From positions 1-45,085 of the IMG/VR virus record IMGVR_UViG_3300037048_000158: a stretch of DNA of 45,085 nucleotides; one strand, written 5' to 3'. Both the position numbers and the translations under genes were made by a program. This DNA comes from a virus (lineage: Duplodnaviria > Caudoviricetes). The notes under the pieces were generated by a model. The model was given only the letters and a program-made list of their open reading frames with translations. It made no database searches and was not told where the DNA came from. This document shows, one piece after another, positions 22 through 45,085 of this stretch (within the stretch, counting starts at the first letter, position 1; every line of letters starts with the position of its first letter).

Positions 22-103
22 GCGGATATGGCGTAATTGGTAGCCGCGCCAGACTTAGGATCTGGTGCCGAGAGGCGTAGGAGTTCGAGTCTCCTTATCC
101 GCA
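22..103 (+). tRNA. tRNA-Leu (anticodon TAG)
   Basis: Acceptor GCGGATA/TATCCGC plus discriminator A; anticodon arm CCAGA-CTTAGGA-TCTGG; long variable arm; T-arm AGGAG-TTCGAGT-CTCCT. Confidence 0.97.
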
Positions 104-215: not shown

Positions 216-1418
216 ATGAAAAAACAAGTTGATGTTGTGCTTCCTTACCTGGTGAACTCCGGGAAATCCTATTTCGTGGAATACAGGTGTTTTTATCCTT
301 CATCAAACAGGATGGAGCGATTCCGTATTTACAAGGGATTCGCAAAACTGAAGCCTGTAGAAGTGGATGCCTTTGCCCAGCAAATCATAAACTCATTTTC
401 GTTGAAACTGAAATCAGGCTGGAGGCCGTGGCTGAGTGATTCAGTTATATACCAGGATGAAACGGAATATTTCAATGTAGTATCCATTGCTGGCCAGACA
501 CGACGGGATAAAAACCATATCAAAAGATACTTCAGCGAATTCCTTATTTATAAGAAAAGTGATGTAAGCATTAAGAGCTATGAAAGCTATCAGTCGAAGA
601 TCAGGCGGTTTCAGATATGGCTAGTTAAAAATGGATACGGTGATCTTCTATTGAGAGAGATATCGAATGACATAATATCAAAGTACTTTTTTCACCTGAT
701 TCAGGTGAGAAAACTGGATTCGATTACTGTAAAGAATTACCGGGTCCTGATCAGTGCTATGTTTATTTATTTCATCAGTAAAAAGTTGGTAACAGATAAC
801 CCGGTGCATGATTTACCAAAAGCTACCAAGTTAGTGGATAATGCCGCCCGGCCTTTAACCGATAATGATATGAAGAAGTATTTAAATTACGTTACCAGGA
901 ATGATACTCAAATGATGTTGGCCAGTCTGTTTCAGTTTTTTTTATTACTTCGCCCTAACCAGGAACTGAGGCTTATGAAAATTCAGGATCTTGATTTGCA
1001 CCGGCAATCAGCCTTTGTGCCGGATAACACTGCCAAAATGCGAAAGCGGGTTGTTACCATTCCCCGGGCATTAAATGATCTGATTGAAAAGTATAAGTTG
1101 ATGGAGTACGCTCCGGATTTTTACATTTTCGGCAAATACGGAGAACCAGGGCCGGTTACGATCGGGAAAAACCACTTTAACCGCAAATTCAGAATTTACT
1201 GCAACATACTCAAGCTTTCAAAGAAATACTCCTTTTATTCACTCAAGCATACCGGTGCCGGCACCTTGATGGAAAGCGGAGCTACCCTTGCTGAGCTAAT
1301 GACACAGCTTGGCCACACAAGTTTTGAAAGTACAATTCACTATGTACGCAGGCATTTTGGTGAGAAGTCGCAGAAAGTAATTAATCTGCGACCTGAATTC
1401 CTGAAAGGTATTATATAG
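216..1418 (+). CDS. int: Tyrosine recombinase / phage integrase
   Basis: 400 aa next to attL; catalytic-type motifs LLLRPNQEL, YSLKHTG, LGHTS, TIHY. Confidence 0.93.
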   Translation: MKKQVDVVLPYLVNSGKSYFVEYRCFYPSSNRMERFRIYKGFAKLKPVEVDAFAQQIINSFSLKLKSGWRPWLSDSVIYQDETEYFNVVSIAGQTRRDKNHIKRYFSEFLIYKKSDVSIKSYESYQSKIRRFQIWLVKNGYGDLLLREISNDIISKYFFHLIQVRKLDSITVKNYRVLISAMFIYFISKKLVTDNPVHDLPKATKLVDNAARPLTDNDMKKYLNYVTRNDTQMMLASLFQFFLLLRPNQELRLMKIQDLDLHRQSAFVPDNTAKMRKRVVTIPRALNDLIEKYKLMEYAPDFYIFGKYGEPGPVTIGKNHFNRKFRIYCNILKLSKKYSFYSLKHTGAGTLMESGATLAELMTQLGHTSFESTIHYVRRHFGEKSQKVINLRPEFLKGII

Positions 1419-20126: not shown

Positions 20127-20153
20127 AAAAAAAAGCCCCGGAAACGGGGGCTT
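20126..20153 (-). terminator. Intrinsic terminator
   Basis: GC-rich hairpin followed by a 9-nt U-tract, immediately after the protease stop. Confidence 0.8.
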
Positions 20154-20712
20154 AAAATCTTTTATGAGGTCCTTTTTTACGTATTCGTTCTACAGCTCTT
20201 CGCTCTTCTCTTGATAATCCCGATGTTCCTTCATTCGGATGTATCATTGTTTTCTCCGGACTGGTAAAGTCAATTCTGGATATTGAAGGAAATCTAAAAG
20301 ACATTACGGTATGATTATTTGCATTTGTTACTGCAAAATCACCATTACCAATAATATCCATGCCTATAAGTACTGCGAAATCTCCGCTCAGCTTTTCACA
20401 TTCAGTAACTTTTATTGGAAATATCGTAACATTGTTAGGCAATGTAATCGAAACCAAGTAAACATTAGCTATTGAAGACCCTGTTACTCCCTGCACATTT
20501 GTTTGTGATACTGGAAATAACTTAAGGTCATCTACAACTTTTTTCGTTATTACACTTCCAGTTGCTCCTGTATCCCAAATAGCCTGATATCTACCATGAG
20601 GTTTTGATTTATTAATATGAGAATCAGGATGTCCGATAATGACATCAGTTACCAGCACATTAACTTTATTTCTGTATTCAGTTGTAAAGTTGTGGATTTG
20701 TATATTATCCAT
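20152..20712 (-). CDS. Retropepsin-like (clan AA) aspartic protease
   Basis: AIWDTGATGSVI catalytic motif and VLIGMDII C-terminal motif. Confidence 0.88.
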   Translation of the reverse strand: MDNIQIHNFTTEYRNKVNVLVTDVIIGHPDSHINKSKPHGRYQAIWDTGATGSVITKKVVDDLKLFPVSQTNVQGVTGSSIANVYLVSITLPNNVTIFPIKVTECEKLSGDFAVLIGMDIIGNGDFAVTNANNHTVMSFRFPSISRIDFTSPEKTMIHPNEGTSGLSREERRAVERIRKKGPHKRF

Positions 20713-20728
20713 TCATTAACTATTTAGA

Positions 20729-20965
20729 TCAAGCAAATACAACTCTGGTATGAAAAGTTTGAGTAAGTCCTTTATCGCCAGGCTCACATTTTTGAATCAG
20801 AAATGTGCCTTCCTCGTATTTATCAATACTATCCATATAGGCATCAAGTTCATTGTCGAAGACTCCAACAACTTTTTCATTTTTTATAACAAGAGTTTTT
20901 CCTGAATACTCCTTTTCGAGTTCAGCTTTATGTTCTACGTAAAAATTGAATTCTTTGGTTAACAT
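20729..20965 (-). CDS. DUF5678-like small protein
   Basis: L.KEF.FY..H..EL...Y.GK.LVIK...VVG.FD...DAY pattern; directly upstream of the aspartic protease. Confidence 0.7.
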   Translation of the reverse strand: MLTKEFNFYVEHKAELEKEYSGKTLVIKNEKVVGVFDNELDAYMDSIDKYEEGTFLIQKCEPGDKGLTQTFHTRVVFA

Positions 20966-21022: not shown

Positions 21023-21067
21023 TTATTAACAAATGTATTGCAAAAATGATTTAAAATCAATATAAAT

Positions 21068-21128
21068 AAAAAAACCCCGGAAACTTGCCTGGGGAATCAG
21101 CCATAGCTGAGGCAAGATCCGGGGCTTT
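21068..21128 (-). terminator. Branched terminator hairpin ending the antirepressor operon
   Basis: CCCCGGA..CTTGCC..(TCAGC/GCTGA)..GGCAAG..TCCGGGG followed by a U-tract. Confidence 0.7.
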
Positions 21129-21143
21129 CACCATGTTCAAAGG

Positions 21144-21404
21144 TTACTTTTTAAATACCTCCAGTTCTTCAGCTATACCGCTGATCAGGGTTATATGATG
21201 CATTGCATCCTGAAGGTATGTTTCGCCCAGCTGCTCAGATAACCTGGCAATAAAACCAACAGCTTTCAGCAAATCGCAAATGCGACCCTCTACACTGTCA
21301 TTGTCATGTTGCTGCCAGTTAGCAATAGTATCAACAGTTTTGTCGCTCAGTACTGCTTCTCCTATTTTGTGCAGCACAACAGACTTGGTATTAACCTGCA
21401 GCAT
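21144..21404 (-). CDS. Small helical protein downstream of the antirepressor
   Basis: Start MLQVNTK overlaps the ant stop; GGAAGGAGG upstream. Confidence 0.55.
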   Translation of the reverse strand: MLQVNTKSVVLHKIGEAVLSDKTVDTIANWQQHDNDSVEGRICDLLKAVGFIARLSEQLGETYLQDAMHHITLISGIAEELEVFKK

Positions 21405-21963
21405 CTGCAGCCTCCTTCCCGAAAAATCCAAAATCAAGCATAAGCTGATTCTTGTTATCAAAATAATCCTGCTGGTTAATTTTGCGGGCCCTGTTAAGTT
21501 CTTCCCGGGCAGTAAGTACTTTATCTTTTGCATCCCGAAAATCAATACGTGCATTATCATAGATAAGTAACTTTTCGTCAATAATGCTTTGTCGAAATTC
21601 CAGAAAATCTTCCAGCCTTGTAAAATAGTTGTAAAGTGCATGATGGCACTCAAGCTGATATCGAAGCAAAGGTTCTTTTGACTCTTCTTTAACTTTTCTG
21701 CTGTCGATATTACACAACCACCCAAATACAAATTCAAGTGGAATTGTAATCATTTCATACTGCTTTCCATCCGATCCAGTTGTAAGGATCATCTTTATAA
21801 CTGAACTGTAAATCGGATGTGTTTTAAGTACCTCTAACTGGCCCTGCATTGTTATTCCCAATGCTTCACAAATTGGCTTTACAGGGACCATTTTTTCACC
21901 TGCTTCGATAATCTGGATGCTTACACCGTTGATGCGGGCAACCGTTGTCATGTTGTTTTCCAT
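21391..21963 (-). CDS. ant: Phage antirepressor (P22_AR_N domain)
   Basis: VPVKPICEALGI...SDGKQYEMITIPLEFVFGWL..I...KVK...L..YQ.EC is the P22 Ant N-terminal signature. Confidence 0.85.
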   Translation of the reverse strand: MENNMTTVARINGVSIQIIEAGEKMVPVKPICEALGITMQGQLEVLKTHPIYSSVIKMILTTGSDGKQYEMITIPLEFVFGWLCNIDSRKVKEESKEPLLRYQLECHHALYNYFTRLEDFLEFRQSIIDEKLLIYDNARIDFRDAKDKVLTAREELNRARKINQQDYFDNKNQLMLDFGFFGKEAADAAG

Positions 21964-21975
21964 AGCTGTGCCTCC

Positions 21976-22494
21976 TTAGTCGATCATGTTATCATTCATA
22001 CAATAGCCATAATATGACTTTGGGTGATTCTTTATCACCATTTCGAAGTAATAAAGGCTTCGACGCACAAACATGATGTCTTCTTCGCAAACAATGCCTG
22101 TTTTACTGTATTCAATCAACAGTTTAACGGGCTTGCCTTCTGCATTGTACAATTCTCTACAAAACATGCAATCGTGCGCGGTAAGCACCTTCACAGCTTG
22201 CTGAAAAAGTGGTGTTGGCAATTCAGTGATGGAAAATTTTAGCCTGTAAAAAAGCCTGTTTTTTAATGCTTTACGCATGTAGTTAAACCATCCGGGTGTA
22301 GATGTAACAGGCAGCACATCGTTAATAAACGTTTGTGCATTTAATTGCTTGTTTTGATGCAGATTAAGCACAATTTCAATAGCCCGCTTCTGGTTGCCCG
22401 GAGCCATGCTAATAAAGTTGAGTACATCGTTGAGATTCATTTTCGATCCTGACAGATCGCATGGGCGCATCGCCCTGGTTACGGTAGGTAACAT
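21976..22494 (-). CDS. Hypothetical protein, first gene of the antirepressor operon
   Basis: AGGAGA upstream; starts 1 nt after the leader ORF stop. Confidence 0.6.
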   Translation of the reverse strand: MLPTVTRAMRPCDLSGSKMNLNDVLNFISMAPGNQKRAIEIVLNLHQNKQLNAQTFINDVLPVTSTPGWFNYMRKALKNRLFYRLKFSITELPTPLFQQAVKVLTAHDCMFCRELYNAEGKPVKLLIEYSKTGIVCEEDIMFVRRSLYYFEMVIKNHPKSYYGYCMNDNMID

Positions 22495-22495
22495 C

Positions 22496-22621
22496 TTACA
22501 TTTCTCCTAATGAAAAAACCCCCAACCATCCGTGAAAACACCCCGCCAAGGGTGCTACCGGTTGCCCGGTAAGATGATTGAGGGTTTCCCCTATTAAGTT
22601 AAATGTTGATTCTAAGAACAT
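22496..22621 (-). CDS. 41-aa leader ORF running through the C4-like RNA (not in ORF track)
   Basis: MFLESTFNLIGETLNHLTGQPVAPLAGCFHGWLGVFSLGEM; the stop TAA is followed by G-ATG of the next gene. Confidence 0.5.
   Translation of the reverse strand: MFLESTFNLIGETLNHLTGQPVAPLAGCFHGWLGVFSLGEM
22516..22587 (-). ncRNA. C4/CI-like antisense cloverleaf RNA
   Basis: ~14-bp closing stem whose G-U pairs work only on the minus strand; UACCGG-GCAA-CCGGUA GNRA hairpin; GCACCC-UUGGCG-GGGUGU hairpin; UUUCAC bulge. Loop and bulge are complementary to 22625..22642. Confidence 0.75.
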
Positions 22622-22674
22622 GGTTTGGCGGTTTTATTTCACTACATTCAGATGTTCAAGGCTGAATGATTGGG

Positions 22675-22705
22675 CAAATATACAATAAGATTGTAAAAAG
22701 TCAAG
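22675..22705 (-). promoter_or_regulatory. Promoter (CTTG-N19-TATATTTG) with operator TACAAT-AAG-ATTGTA
   Basis: -7 element at 22675..22682; palindrome at 22681..22695. Confidence 0.7.
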
Positions 22706-22707
22706 AA

Positions 22708-23664
22708 TTATTTTTCAATTCTTTTATGCCTAGTACTAAAAGCAAATCCCAACTTTCCATTTTCTATTTCAATCGTTTCAACTTTTATCCATTCATCATC
22801 TTCCTTTCTTGAAAGCCTCACTCCATTAATAATGGAAAGCAATTGATTCTCATCTATAATTTTGATATCTATTCCATTATTAATAAAATCTTCAGTCTTT
22901 TTCTTCTTTTCACGCCCGGGGTTATTGCCTGTGATAAGATAATTAATTCGCTCACTAACTGAAACGTCCAGATCAGCGCCTAGCCTTTTCAATAGTAACC
23001 CAAGATTATCACGCTCTGGCCAGTTTATGTATGTACCTGTTATTACTACTTTCTTTTGATAGAAAGGATTTTCAACATTCTCAGTGACATCAAAGCTTTT
23101 CTTAAATAGATCTCTGTTTAATTTCTTAGCATATCTTTTACCTGATTCTTTCTTTATACCAGGTGTCGGATTGTACTCAATAAAATTTGCATCATTTGAT
23201 TTCATAAACAAACAAGCTGCAGCTTCAGCATCTGAAAGAGCATCATGATGATTCAAACAAATACCAAACTCTTTGCAACATACATCGAGGGCTTTGCCTC
23301 CAAACAGTTTCATTGTGTCGGAATAATCAAATGACAGATCATCCGGATCAATAGCATAGTGAACCATGCATTTTCTTAGTACATCAATATCAAAGCTTGC
23401 ATTATGGCATACAAGGTGTTCCCCGTCAATAAAATTTTTTATTAAAGGATACAGTTCATAAAAATTAGGAGCATGTTCAGTGTTAACCGGAGAAATTCCG
23501 TGAACATTAATACAATTCTCTGAGTATGAATTACCCGGTGGTTGAATCAAAGAAAAGAATTTTTGAATGATTACCTGATCCTTAACTTTAATAATACCTA
23601 CTGCACATGCAGTATTTCTGCCATAGTTAGCAGTTTCAAAATCAATTGATACAAATGTTTTCAT
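22708..23664 (-). CDS. DnaQ-like DEDDh 3'-5' exonuclease fused to a BRCT domain
   Basis: SIDFETAN, VCHNASFD and HHDALSDA motifs; C-terminal KKVVITG...LGA...SVS..INYLITG..PG BRCT motif. Confidence 0.9.
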   Translation of the reverse strand: MKTFVSIDFETANYGRNTACAVGIIKVKDQVIIQKFFSLIQPPGNSYSENCINVHGISPVNTEHAPNFYELYPLIKNFIDGEHLVCHNASFDIDVLRKCMVHYAIDPDDLSFDYSDTMKLFGGKALDVCCKEFGICLNHHDALSDAEAAACLFMKSNDANFIEYNPTPGIKKESGKRYAKKLNRDLFKKSFDVTENVENPFYQKKVVITGTYINWPERDNLGLLLKRLGADLDVSVSERINYLITGNNPGREKKKKTEDFINNGIDIKIIDENQLLSIINGVRLSRKEDDEWIKVETIEIENGKLGFAFSTRHKRIEK

Positions 23665-24135: not shown

Positions 24136-24540
24136 ATGAGTAAAGCAGCAAACAGGGCAGCCAAAGAAGCTACCCAGGCCACAGGCCAAAACGAAAGCCA
24201 GGACAAAAGCCAGGCAGTTGAAACAACAATGCAGGTTTTGAAACCGGAGCCACAGCCGGAACCGGAACCGGAGAAACCAAACGTTTATGATGTGATTCGC
24301 AAAATTTATGAGCAGTACCACCGTAGCGAGCAGCATTCAAACTATTTGCAGCAACTTGACAGACTGCAGCAATTCAGAAGCCAGATAAATAATAATACTA
24401 ATCTGGTTCTCTCAAACGGAGCAGGACAAGCCACTTTTACAAGTGTTGACCCTGCAGCCGTTGACACTCTTATTGATATCTGTATCAAGAACGTAAAAGG
24501 CAAGATTTCAGAAATTGAAAACATGCTGATTGCAGCGTAA
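24136..24540 (+). CDS. Hypothetical protein (Pro/Glu linker, helical)
   Basis: A-rich start context; first gene of the plus-strand island operon. Confidence 0.65.
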   Translation: MSKAANRAAKEATQATGQNESQDKSQAVETTMQVLKPEPQPEPEPEKPNVYDVIRKIYEQYHRSEQHSNYLQQLDRLQQFRSQINNNTNLVLSNGAGQATFTSVDPAAVDTLIDICIKNVKGKISEIENMLIAA

Positions 24541-24591
24541 TCTTTAACCGGCCGGCAGGTCCAACGGCTTGCCGGCCTAACTTTTTAAGAC

Positions 24592-24936
24592 ATGGAAAAG
24601 ACAAACGAACACAAGGAGAAGAGGGAAGCCCTCAAAGCATTGAGCCAACAGGTTAAACCACTGGTGAAAGAAGGCCAGTATGATACCGTAAACGATGCTA
24701 TTATGGATTGTTTTTACAGGCAGAACGGACACAGCGAATTCAATACACTGTGGGAATGGAATAAAAAAGGTTACAGGATTTTAAAAGGTAGCAAAGCATT
24801 CGTAGTTTGGGGAAGCCCCCGACAGTTAAAGAAGGTAGAACCGGAAACGGACGAGGACAAAAAAGAAGAATTTTTTCCGCTATGTTATTTATTCAGCAAC
24901 CTGCAGGTTGAGCAATCAGAAAGGAGAGCAGCATAA
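24592..24936 (+). CDS. ArdC-N-like ssDNA-binding domain protein
   Basis: FNTLWEWNKKGYRILKGSKA...YLFSNLQ matches the ArdC N-terminal T..W...G..V.KG.K....F...Q pattern; no metalloprotease domain. Confidence 0.75.
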   Translation: MEKTNEHKEKREALKALSQQVKPLVKEGQYDTVNDAIMDCFYRQNGHSEFNTLWEWNKKGYRILKGSKAFVVWGSPRQLKKVEPETDEDKKEEFFPLCYLFSNLQVEQSERRAA

Positions 24937-25151
24937 TGGCACAGGTTAAGACATTGCGAAGATTAAGAATTCAGGAAAAAATAAGGTTCGGCCGATTCTA
25001 TAACAGAACCCTTTATCCGGCAATCCGAATAGAAGGAAATTGGCTAAAGGATGCCGGATTTTTGCCTAATACCTGCGTTTATGTAATTATAGAATCAGGC
25101 AAAATTGTAATTAAACCCGAAGCAGAAACCACAAACAAGCAAAGAGCATGA
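24936..25151 (+). CDS. symE: SymE-family (AbrB-fold) toxin-like protein
   Basis: PAIRIEGNWLKDAGF....VYV..ESGKIVI; TAATG translational coupling. Confidence 0.8.
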   Translation: MAQVKTLRRLRIQEKIRFGRFYNRTLYPAIRIEGNWLKDAGFLPNTCVYVIIESGKIVIKPEAETTNKQRA

Positions 25152-25336
25152 CAGCGCCAACAGGAAACTATTTTTATTGCAGATATTGCGGTGATTATTT
25201 CACCATGGGCAGGGAAGATTTTAATTCATATATGAATGGAGAAATGGAAACCCCTGACACCTGCGATTTATGTATTGAAATGCTGAACAGTCAGCCGGAA
25301 CCGGATTATTTCTCAGATGCAGACCCGGGATTGTAA
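25148..25336 (+). CDS. Small zinc-ribbon protein
   Basis: CRYC...PDTCDLC; ATGA overlap with the symE-like gene. Confidence 0.65.
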   Translation: MTAPTGNYFYCRYCGDYFTMGREDFNSYMNGEMETPDTCDLCIEMLNSQPEPDYFSDADPGL

Positions 25337-25499: not shown

Positions 25500-27122
25500 T
25501 TAGATTTCCATCATGCTGGTGCTCATGCCCGGAGTAGATGCTGATGTATAATCAGGGTAAAAGAACATTCCTAACATCAGATCATCCCAGGCATCGGTAC
25601 CATCAGTTCTATGCTGGAGAAGATCCTCTTCACTTTCGGCAAGCTTCTCACCACTTTTATCCTTCTGAAAACCGTTAGGCCCGATCCTGATGCCGGTATG
25701 CTCCAGTGAGAGCTTCAGAGCTTCATTGTTATTGACATTAATTTGAGGCATCAAATACTTCTGGCCTTTCAAAGCCTGGTCAAGTATGATGTATTTTTCA
25801 TGATGCTTCAGGGTATTGCCGATAAATACTTTTTTTACGGTCCACCGGTTCTTGTCGAACTGACTGCAGACAACTGAGGCGAAGTCTTCGTCCGACACAG
25901 CATAATTAGAACCAAGGGCAGTTGAATTGTAATAGTAAACCACTTCCCTGGTGGAGTGATGACGATAGTATTTACAGAAATCGTCAATCACTTCGCGCAG
26001 CTTTCGTTGATACTTAACATAAAAGCTTTTCAGGGTATTAGCTTTTATTCCTTTTTGCTGGCCTACTATGCACCAGTTGATATTTGCGTTATAGTCGAAT
26101 GCGACACACAGTGGCCGGTTGAGATCCACATCACCATCCTGAATGCAGCTCTCTTCCCGGGCCTTATCAAAATCGTATTCTAATCCCTGCAGGTAATCAT
26201 TGTTGAAGGCTGAATAAAAATGTGAATCTTTTAATCCAGGATAAAATCCATCCTTTAGTTTCCCGGGCCTGATGCACATGATCGATGTCATAAAAACCAA
26301 AGGCGGAAGGTCACGCTTCATTTGCGCTATGTACTTTTTACCAAGTAACTCAACATTCTCAATTGATGATACTTCGCGATAATAAACAGCCACACTCCGG
26401 AGCTGAGCCAACTGAAGGGAATACTCCCTGATCAGGCGCTTGTTCCATTCAGTCTGGGAATCCTGCTTTAAATCGTAAATTTTGCGTACAAGCCATTTGA
26501 TTGACTCAATTACTTCCGGATCTGATTTCTCTTTGTAATTCAAAAACCATGATCCCTTCTTACTGGTGGGCATGTCGGAAGTAAACAGGACAGAATTTAA
26601 CCATGGGCAGTTTTTCCAGGGACCTTTGTATCCACCATTTGCCGGCAGGGTTTCATCTTTAAGCTTATCGAAATCTAAGAACTTTGCTTCATCACCAAGG
26701 ATGTACTGCAGAGTAAGCGAATTACTTGATCCGGGGATATCCTGCGATATCAAATACTGAATTGAGCCATTGTACCAGCTTACCACATGATCGCAGCTCA
26801 CAGGCTTTATTACCGGCTCCTTAAAGCCGGCCGACTTAGGTGGTTTTCGTCCGACAAAATAGTGAACATTGCGATGATATCCCTGATCTTCCAGAGCTTT
26901 AAAAGTTCCGGGCAATGTCCTGGTAAGCAATTGCTGAAATGTACTGCCAACAATACCACCTCCGGAGCGTGGCATGTACTGAACATTGCGCAATAACCAG
27001 GGAGCATTAAGCCCATGCGATTTGCCCAGGCGCCGGCCGCCGACAAATATTGAGGTATGAGCGCCAACATATCGGAATTCAAGTTGAGGATCATTGAAAT
27101 ATATCTTCTTCTTTTCCTGCAT
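25500..27122 (-). CDS. terL: Terminase large subunit
   Basis: Walker A GGRRLGKS, Walker B ILGDEAK, RNase-H nuclease residues AFDYN and TDGTDAWD. Confidence 0.9.
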   Translation of the reverse strand: MQEKKKIYFNDPQLEFRYVGAHTSIFVGGRRLGKSHGLNAPWLLRNVQYMPRSGGGIVGSTFQQLLTRTLPGTFKALEDQGYHRNVHYFVGRKPPKSAGFKEPVIKPVSCDHVVSWYNGSIQYLISQDIPGSSNSLTLQYILGDEAKFLDFDKLKDETLPANGGYKGPWKNCPWLNSVLFTSDMPTSKKGSWFLNYKEKSDPEVIESIKWLVRKIYDLKQDSQTEWNKRLIREYSLQLAQLRSVAVYYREVSSIENVELLGKKYIAQMKRDLPPLVFMTSIMCIRPGKLKDGFYPGLKDSHFYSAFNNDYLQGLEYDFDKAREESCIQDGDVDLNRPLCVAFDYNANINWCIVGQQKGIKANTLKSFYVKYQRKLREVIDDFCKYYRHHSTREVVYYYNSTALGSNYAVSDEDFASVVCSQFDKNRWTVKKVFIGNTLKHHEKYIILDQALKGQKYLMPQINVNNNEALKLSLEHTGIRIGPNGFQKDKSGEKLAESEEDLLQHRTDGTDAWDDLMLGMFFYPDYTSASTPGMSTSMMEI

Positions 27123-44089: not shown

Positions 44090-44175
44090 TAGTGTACTTT
44101 TTACAATGCAAATATACTATTGAAATCTCAAAATGCAATATAAATAGTGCGATTGGGAGATAAATAGTGCAATTT
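44090..44175. promoter_or_regulatory. Immunity switch region: leftward -7 TATATTTG and TAAATAGTGC repeats
   Basis: caaatata at 44109..44116; TAAATAGTGC at 44141 and 44161; related TAGTGTAC at 44090. Confidence 0.6.
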
Positions 44176-44556
44176 ATAAACATTCTAAATATTACTACTT
44201 TGGACTACAGTAAGATACGTGTGCTTATGATGCATAATAATTTTTCAGAGCGAAAATTGGCTACTGAAATAGGAATGTCTAATACAGGGTTCAGGACAGC
44301 ATTAGAGCGAAAGACACTAAGGATAGATCATCTTGAGAAAATTAGTGCTGTATTTGATGTTCCTGTTACCTATTTTTTTAATGAATCGAATGAGATTATT
44401 GAATCTAAACCAGGGAAAAAATGCATGGATTGCGTTTCAAAAGATGGCAAAATTGAATTATTGACTAAAATGATCAAAGAAAAGGAGGAGATGATAAAGC
44501 AATTACACATTGATTTGGGACGAAATGCGCCCGGTAAGAGTGGCAAGGTCGCCTAA
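44167..44556 (+). CDS. CI-like XRE HTH repressor (no S24 peptidase domain)
   Basis: SERKLATEIGMSNTGF...LEKISAVFDVPVTYFF; C-terminal CxxC plus coiled coil; the true start may be TTG at 44200. Confidence 0.82.
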   Translation: MQFINILNITTLDYSKIRVLMMHNNFSERKLATEIGMSNTGFRTALERKTLRIDHLEKISAVFDVPVTYFFNESNEIIESKPGKKCMDCVSKDGKIELLTKMIKEKEEMIKQLHIDLGRNAPGKSGKVA

Positions 44557-44879: not shown

Positions 44880-44932
44880 ATCAGATTTACGAGACAGTTT
44901 CAGACAAATCAGACAAAAATAATTTATTGATT
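44870..44932 (+). promoter_or_regulatory. Candidate arm-type sites (TCAGACA x3) and an IHF-type site
   Basis: TCAGACA at 44870, 44900 and 44909; the reverse complement of 44920..44932 is AATCAATAAATTA (WATCAANNNNTTR). Confidence 0.6.
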
Positions 44933-44958
44933 TAAAGTTCATTATGAGTGTTTAACGA

Positions 44959-44978
44959 GAGTCTCCTTATCCGCACAA
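44959..44978 (+). repeat. attR core
   Basis: Exact copy of 87..106. Confidence 0.95.
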
Positions 44979-44981
44979 GAT

Positions 44982-45009
44982 AAACACCCGCGCAAGCGGG
45001 TGTTTGTTT
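44982..45009 (+). terminator. Terminator-like hairpin downstream of attR (probably the displaced tRNA terminator)
   Basis: AAACACCCGC-GCAA-GCGGGTGTTT-GTTT. Confidence 0.8.
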
Positions 45010-45051
45010 CTAAATATTACATGACGAGAAGTCAACCCCGCCAACGGCGGG

Positions 45052-45085
45052 GAGTCTCCTTATCCGTAAAAGAAATACACCCGCG
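45052..45085 (+). repeat. Degenerate extra copy of the att core and terminator start
   Basis: GAGTCTCCTTATCCG-TAAAAGAAATACACCCGCG versus ...CCG-CACAAGATAAACACCCGCG. Confidence 0.75.

Follow-up and report, generated by a model that had tools for sequence, protein, structure and literature searches.

Genomic Setting and Gene Content of the Locus

The window, by which we mean the whole stretch of DNA that was analyzed, was an entire virus record of 45,085 bases encoding a tRNA, an integrase, a CI-like repressor and a terminase (Table 1). A cassette comprising a leader open reading frame (ORF), a folded RNA and three further genes lay in a group of minus-strand genes flanked by the terminase and the structural region; a promoter-like element of its own preceded it, and a terminator-like hairpin closed it. 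The promoter proposed here in the initial annotation was present as a promoter-like element, but is best read as TAnnTTTG at 22682..22675. We take this motif to be a Bacteroidota-type promoter element, and it occurred in exact form upstream of the leader in 29 of the 31 related cassettes described below. An optional 5' hairpin in the promoter-target interval was found at the same place in 20 of 30 cassettes compared and was missing from 10 short ones. As related cassettes were found in Bacteroidales/Bacteroidetes MAGs (L145, L146, L149, L154) and carry TAnnTTTG, the host of this phage is presumably a member of the Bacteroidota.

Table 1. Features of the window and of the cassette
Feature	Position	Strand	Evidence or remark
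tRNA	22-103		Rfam scan of window
Integrase	216-1418		Window gene
Terminator-like hairpin and U-run, operon end	21070..21129	-	-34.1 kcal/mol, z -5.16
86-aa small gene overlapping ant end	21144..21404	-	Third operon gene
190-aa P22_AR_N antirepressor-like protein	21391..21963	-	PF10547 E 2e-29; phrog_524 anti-repressor Ant E 4e-28
172-aa protein	21976..22494	-	Small family, kept at same position
41-codon leader ORF crossing whole RNA	22496..22621	-	ATG 22621; stop 1 nt before ATG 22494
AGGAG, Shine-Dalgarno-like	22504..22508	-	Just behind P1 stem, within last codons of leader; partly paired in P1 extension
Three-way-junction RNA, ~80 nt	22512..22591	-	Fold, covariation, model R1
Closing stem P1, 20 bp	22591-22572 with 22531-22512	-	
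Hairpin P2, GNRA-capped	22571-22556	-	
Hairpin P3	22555-22538	-	Loop key TTGGCGG at tip
Loop key TTGGCGG	22543..22549	-	Complementary to 22625-22631
Bulge, 6 nt	22537-22532	-	3' side
Bulge key TTTCAC, hypervariable	22532..22537	-	Complementary to 22637-22642
U-run in RNA	22518-22513	-	
Single bipartite target GTGAAATAAAACCGCCAA	22625..22642	-	Inverted pair with keys, covariation
Target half GTGAAA	22642-22637	-	Pairs with bulge
Target half CCGCCAA	22631-22625	-	Pairs with loop
Optional 5' hairpin, promoter-target interval	22645..22668	-	-4.8 kcal/mol, z -2.15
TATATTTG (TAnnTTTG), Bacteroidota-type promoter element (presumed)	22675..22682	-	Sequence; exact motif in 29 of 31 cassettes
Terminase	25500-27122		Window gene
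CI-like repressor	44167-44556		Window gene

The order of genes behind the RNA was as first described, with the 172-aa gene followed by the P22_AR_N gene and a small gene. No Pfam or PHROG family was found for the 172-aa protein, all of its matches in Atlas were under 0.9 with TM-by-query under 0.5, and as a search bait it found only the same element. Homologues occupied the same position in related loci (L146, L243, L264; 33 representatives), and ML(P/Q)xVT N-termini back the start at 22494 for this protein, for which the database call is 154 aa. Going by its P22_AR_N domain, the 190-aa protein is a putative antirepressor. An 85-aa reading of the third gene matched no family; similar small genes were situated behind ant in related loci.

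Directly upstream of the cassette promoter (22708-23664) was a gene for a DnaQ-type exonuclease fused with a BRCT domain. Behind the operon terminator (20152-20965) a DUF5678-like small gene was paired with an aspartyl-protease gene, with TAnnTTTG elements nearby at 21037 and 20997. Four small plus-strand genes at 24136-25336, opposed to the late-gene direction, included a weak ArdC-N match and a SymE domain. Repeated pieces at the right end of the window (44899-45085), which by eye resembled the 3' end of the tRNA, are probably attachment-site remnants.

A Three-Way-Junction RNA Absent from Rfam

A cloverleaf of about 72 nt had been proposed within the leader; a folded RNA was indeed present, but it measured ~80 nt (22512..22591) and formed a three-way junction of a long stem, two hairpins and a 3' bulge. 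The 96 nt at 22505-22600 folded at -50.6 kcal/mol (z -7.84; 0 of 200 shuffles were as stable), with just four of the seven 'loop' bases unpaired in the lowest-energy fold. When 21 related sequences were aligned, 28 of 32 stem pairs showed double-sided change, compared to 10-17 in slid controls; 90.6% of cells in the alignment were paired, and the Us of the U-run were kept opposite G. This run was four to six Us long in 28 of 31 cassettes and only two to three in the other three.

At gathering score, the only Rfam match in the window was the tRNA, and the RNA region matched neither the C4 clan at E<=10 (C4, c4-2, c4-a1b1) nor isrK. By these searches, the RNA family is absent from Rfam. No match to the cassette occurred among 50,697 GenBank phages, and no description of such an RNA in Bacteroidota was found in the literature covered, which excluded most subscription papers.

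Related Cassettes

An exact-motif scan of viral contigs returned 56 loci, comprising only the same element (L020) and chance matches, whereas the P22_AR_N protein used as a bait returned 244 loci. Twenty-one RNAs were aligned as a training set, from which covariance model R1 was built; eight of these had first been picked by a pattern demanding loop-target complementarity, and are therefore circular for a test of keys against targets. R1 matched 31 of 243 Ant loci searched (sense strand, E<1e-4), and scaffold-only patterns added cassettes outside the Ant retrieval. Duplicates and near-duplicates (L084, L225, L144, L079, L099, L100, L230, L338, L369 and same-contig re-fetches), plain hairpins of 38-42 nt (L119/L252, L197/L283) and opposite-strand echoes were dropped, leaving a final set of 31 cassettes, 10 of which lay outside the training set. 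The cassettes are related, so their counts are not counts of independent events.

In whole genomes, neither 150 relatives of G001 nor 150 order members of G002 gave a match to R1, with 30 of several hundred candidates per genome scored. A strict pattern found nothing beyond G002 in 400 class genomes and nothing in 45 family genomes, and it overlooked G004, a cassette holder; what this sample says of the cassette is only that it is rare or missed.

The putative antirepressor gene was first behind the RNA in 15 of the 31 cassettes, second in 11, behind a second cassette in one, and a fragment or absent in four. This link is inflated by retrieval, as 26 of the 31 came via Ant; the five found without that bait had one full Ant, one fragment and three other small genes. 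Cassettes preceding small non-Ant genes or an Ant C-terminal remnant were L327/L338, L364, L350 and L318, and in L338 the sequence behind the RNA lacked a Shine-Dalgarno (SD)-like motif.

The same Ant family was also found behind other leader RNAs. In L147, L148, L087 and L109, a different leader some 230 nt upstream of ant had, at its transcript start, a ~19-nt box with a perfect complement in an internal segment, and a second, partial box lay at the start codon of ant; this type had no Rfam match. A third conserved type upstream of ant (L070, L071, L075, L076, L078, L081, L082, L153, L236) had a GC-rich multi-stem fold ending just ahead of the ant start, again with no Rfam match in the loci scanned, and L073/L074 carried yet another type. 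Several unrelated RNA locks seem interchangeable before one gene.

Loop and Bulge Keys Covary with a Single Upstream Target

The initial annotation had noted that the loop and bulge of the RNA are complementary to a site upstream. This complementarity held in register: the stretch from loop to bulge (22549..22532) and the target formed an 18-nt inverted pair in which the two keys and the two target halves were separated by identical 5-nt spacings, the spacer itself being non-complementary. In the first homologue read (L059), the same cassette sat directly on ant and the halves GTGAAA and TTTCAC were replaced by target CGTCA and bulge TGACG.

Keys and targets were compared by a score made for this analysis from the longest Watson-Crick runs that a 7-nt loop window and the bulge could form, allowing the spacer to vary by +/-2, over the 90 nt upstream of the RNA. 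Across the 31 cassettes, the mean score was 11.6 on the own upstream region and 7.0 on swapped ones, and none of 100,000 permutations reached the own score, bearing out the expectation that loop and target covary in homologues. The own target was strictly best in 24 of 31 rows and best or tied in 28. Similar values were obtained for the 10 non-training cassettes (11.1 vs 6.7) and for 17 representatives of clusters at 80% identity (11.2 vs 6.7). That the RNA and its target form a real regulatory pair is well supported.

One could read the locus as nothing more than a terminator or a stabilising hairpin, its complementarity and its ORF being due to chance, since its long stem ends in a U-run and short ORFs are common. 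The covariation of keys with targets in 31 cassettes (10 of them non-training) refutes this, the start codon that follows the target in every cassette (see below) also speaks against it, and we give the idea next to no credence.

The keys were diverse, with 16 distinct loop keys and 29 distinct loop-bulge pairs among the 31 cassettes. In 13 pairs of cassettes with at least 90% scaffold identity, the bulge key was 56% identical, close to the 53% in distant pairs. Two genomes carried two cassettes each, which scored 12 and 13 on themselves vs 10 and 9 on each other in one case, and 10 and 10 vs 7 and 7 in the other. L145 carried tandem cassettes (1800-1881 and 2398-2479) that shared their loop but differed in the bulge key, and in the second of them the leader stopped early and GGAG was missing; L285:2263-2344 and L294:2227-2308, with differing keys and each with its own ant, belonged to one complete 45-kb phage record (G648). 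Within the cluster of the window, cassettes that have the TTGGCGG loop in common scored 7-12 on one another's targets and 12-13 on their own, so orthogonality may be partial. In run X11, contigs of a relative (corresponding to window 22497-22622) had a changed bulge base at 22532, and one contig had a matching target change, giving an additional compensatory pair.

A second target was sought on the other side of the RNA. The 90 nt downstream scored 6.4 vs 6.6 swapped in the 31 cassettes, giving no second target signal; within 1.5 kb, 6 of the 31 had a near-equal site (3.3 expected), which was never at the next start, and the 45 kb of the window held no second full target site. In the window, the RNA also appeared able to pair with the ant start (inverted pairs I1/I10), a reading that was rejected because such pairing was not seen across cassettes.

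Might the keys serve only their own transcript? The distance from target to RNA was kept at 23-35 nt across cassettes, and folds of the growing transcript showed target:key pairing at 22535-22525, a transient cis duplex (-20.1 kcal/mol, vs -9.5 for the P3 hairpin) later displaced by the cloverleaf. As nascent keys can pair with their own target in cis, a cis-only switch is possible, in which such pairing would act as a transient anti-terminator before the P1 stem closes or as a later fold-back closing the leader (a one-pulse timer), with no free RNA and no immunity; that no processing signal was identified also fits it. In such a switch new keys would bring no gain, yet the bulge key was saturated among near-identical scaffolds, and co-resident cassettes differed in their keys. 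We regard a cis-only switch as rather unlikely.

A Leader Frame Crosses the RNA

The unannotated 41-aa ORF of the initial annotation was recovered at 22621..22496, passing through the RNA and ending 1 nt ahead of the ATG at 22494. All 31 cassettes had a start codon 0-5 nt after the target (ATG in 30, TTG in one), and in every one the leader extended past the 5' strand of stem P1. Its frame was open through the RNA in 27 of 31, compared to 4 of 62 other frames and 7.3 expected from shuffles. A fairer control, counting stops inside the RNA only, gave 27 of 31 open leaders vs 32 of 62 other frames (p=0.001), and 14 of 17 vs 17 of 34 after clustering. These counts support selection on the leader frame to stay open. 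A functional leader peptide was rejected: frames 0 and 1 were both used (14 each) and the sequences diverge, which argues that translation matters rather than the peptide. The leader stop fell between -15 and +79 nt from the next ATG in 27 of 31 cassettes; in the other four it lay inside the RNA, 44-67 nt before that ATG (overall range -67 to +79 nt), and coupling is therefore not universal.

The target of the window spanned -21..-4 relative to the leader start, with an A-rich spacer at -15..-11. Across cassettes the target spanned -22..-1, and A occupied -13, -12 and -11 in 26, 25 and 28 of 31, respectively. In Flavobacterium johnsoniae, adenines at -12, -13, -6 and -3 stimulate initiation (PMC6847099, available in part). 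Since the non-complementary spacer falls on the A-rich -11..-13, where such adenines stimulate initiation in Flavobacterium, the keys appear to bracket a host initiation signal.

The next start differs in kind. An SD-like motif preceded all three operon genes of the window, each of which abuts the previous ORF, and was lacking at the leader; 7 of the 36 genes listed carried one. Across cassettes, GGAG followed the P1 stem in 29 of 31 (26 of 28 when the three retrieved by it are excluded), and the full fold predicts most of it to be base-paired. Blindness to SD sequences has been reported for the ribosomes of Bacteroidia, in which only ~10% of overlapping genes carry such a motif (PMC6728339, in part); PMC10798248 and PMC9976891 likewise report that these ribosomes do not read SD, their available parts holding nothing on reinitiation, and the available part of PMC3155529 held nothing on coupling or mobile elements. 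We count the conservation of GGAG, set against SD-blind ribosomes, as a point against the model that follows.

A Model for Control of the Operon

The model that we favor, and hold to be probable, is a C4/CI-like antisense lock outside Rfam, in which the keys of the 80-nt RNA pair with the leader-start site, likely blocking leader translation in trans and silencing the antirepressor-like operon in the lysogen. That a freed RNA acts in trans is suggested by the turnover of keys and by analogy, and that pairing means repression by the position of the target; termination at the U-run would follow from the four to six Us in 28 of 31 cassettes. RNA processing, coupling between leader and next gene, and a role in immunity are likewise proposed parts of the model. 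In the absence of a matching RNA, the A-rich leader start, which lacks an SD, would be bound by ribosomes that travel through the RNA and hold the P1 stem open. These ribosomes would then be handed on to the next gene, the leader end abutting or overlapping its SD-like site and its ATG, and the operon would be expressed briefly. Some transcripts would fold the cloverleaf and probably end at the U-run; trimming on the 5' side would remove the RNA's own target and free a stable ~80-nt RNA. This RNA would clamp new transcripts on either side of the A-tract at -11..-15, leaving the leader untranslated, so that the P1 stem would close, hide the next SD, favor termination and yield further RNA, in an OFF state that sustains itself. 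A phage arriving with identical keys would be silenced, and one with new keys would express its antirepressor-like gene, which we propose as the reason for the fast turnover of keys. In Salmonella Gifsy-1, orf45-anrP provides a precedent for a leader coupled to an antirepressor and counts in favor of the model; the related RNA circuit there activates rather than represses, which counts against it (PMC4825925, available in part).

Control might instead be exerted mainly at termination, with an RNA in trans keeping the target from sequestering nascent keys, so that the cloverleaf forms and transcription ends, leader translation being secondary. The alternative cis fold, the U-run in 28 of 31 cassettes and the precedent of P4 CI, which acts by termination (PMC4825925, in part), all fit such control, but it would not account for the open frame, for the A-tract at -11..-13 or for the fact that each target is followed by a start codon. 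As the main mechanism we consider it quite unlikely; as an extra layer, it is compatible with the antisense lock.

A third proposal reverses the sign, such that a short 5' fragment bearing the target opens the cloverleaf in trans, or pairing activates the operon, much as Gifsy-1 IsrK activates orf45-anrP translation in trans (PMC4825925, in part). However, the target lies over the ribosome landing site, where pairing should block, and a terminator-like element that would make a short 5' RNA was not seen in the target-RNA interval. An activating pair is in our judgment very unlikely.

Tentatively, and as something possible rather than likely, the antisense lock can be read more widely as a one-target RNA immunity circuit for hosts that ignore SD sequences. 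One 80-nt stretch would be small RNA, attenuator and leader frame at once; its keys would clamp the A-rich enhancer of an SD-less start, SD-marked genes would be reached only by coupling, and some 30 key pairs would constitute an orthogonal immunity code among Bacteroidota prophages. That an antisense RNA can guard an antirepressor is a principle known since 1990. With the cassette, the logic of C4/CI-type immunity would reach prophages of Bacteroidota, carried by an RNA family that Rfam lacks and wired more simply (one target, a leader through the RNA), in a way that fits translation initiation in Bacteroidia. It provides a model, open to testing, of how an RNA can exert control without occluding an SD, together with naturally occurring compensatory pairs of keys and targets in which the diversification of immunity specificity can be studied; orthogonal translational repressors for use in Bacteroidia genetics might also be drawn from it.

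Comparison with C4, CI, isrK and c4-2

C4/CI antisense RNAs are stable small RNAs, processed by RNase P, that act in trans. The C4/CI-like fold suggested at the outset agreed in topology with the Rfam C4 consensus structure, whereas an Infernal comparison against C4, c4-a1b1 and c4-2 gave no match even at E<=10. In a positive control, P4 CI scored 74.9 bits on Rfam C4 (RF01695); in the reverse direction, R1 missed phage P1 C4 and gave P4 CI only 5.7 bits (E 1.9). RNA immunity of the C4/CI type appears under Proteobacteria and their phages in Table 1 of PMC2864571 (available in part). Rfam c4-2 (Weinberg 2017) is described as a likely distant C4 homologue (PMC5737381, in part); it had no match at E<=10 in the window region or L145, and none at gathering score in 39 distinct loci, scanned as two sets of 20 along with the window. 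A related motif could be described in PMC5737381.

In phage P1/P7, the immI order is a1 b1 - c4 RNA - a2 b2 - icd - ant1/ant2 (GenBank AF234172). The cassette resembles immI in its RNA, a three-way junction of 77-80 nt in which one hairpin is short and capped by a tetraloop, the other presents a key in its loop, and a second key sits in a 3' bulge. It further shares with immI an upstream bipartite target on the same transcript, small gene(s) followed by an antirepressor (a putative one here) and keys that differ among phages. It differs in that sequence matches were absent in both directions and a2/b2 are lacking, and the wiring of P1 and P4 presumed by the initial annotation was not supported: the icd start of phage P1 lies downstream, behind a2/b2, with no ATG behind b1, whereas here no downstream target was found and the regulated start is upstream, its ORF crossing the RNA. 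No icd homology was seen; the P22_AR_N gene stood first or second in the mostly Ant-retrieved counts given above. Unlike in immI, the closing stem P1 here is 20 or more bp and ends in a U-run, and the target brackets an A-rich, SD-less start instead of an SD.

Phage P4 CI (X51522), which also matches the isrK model, shares the topology, an upstream target with an ATG close behind, and a tie to premature termination, which for the cassette we infer. P4 has targets on both sides (seqA, seqC; PMC4825925, in part), in contrast to the one upstream target here; the ORF behind seqA ends at about the 5' end of CI, whereas the leader here crosses the RNA; and CI guards kil and replication genes rather than an antirepressor-like operon. 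With isrK-orf45-anrP of Gifsy-1, the cassette shares a short leader ORF (45 aa there) abutting or overlapping an antirepressor-like gene, translationally coupled in Gifsy-1, and a controlling RNA cut from the same transcript, as proposed here (PMC4825925, in part). IsrK, however, is a 5' target-bearing RNA with its own terminator that activates, whereas the cassette had no isrK match and no terminator was seen after the target. With no model match in either direction and no downstream target, the RNA is by the tests run not a member of C4/CI; it appears to work like C4/CI as a separate family with one target, and the two may share a remote common ancestry.
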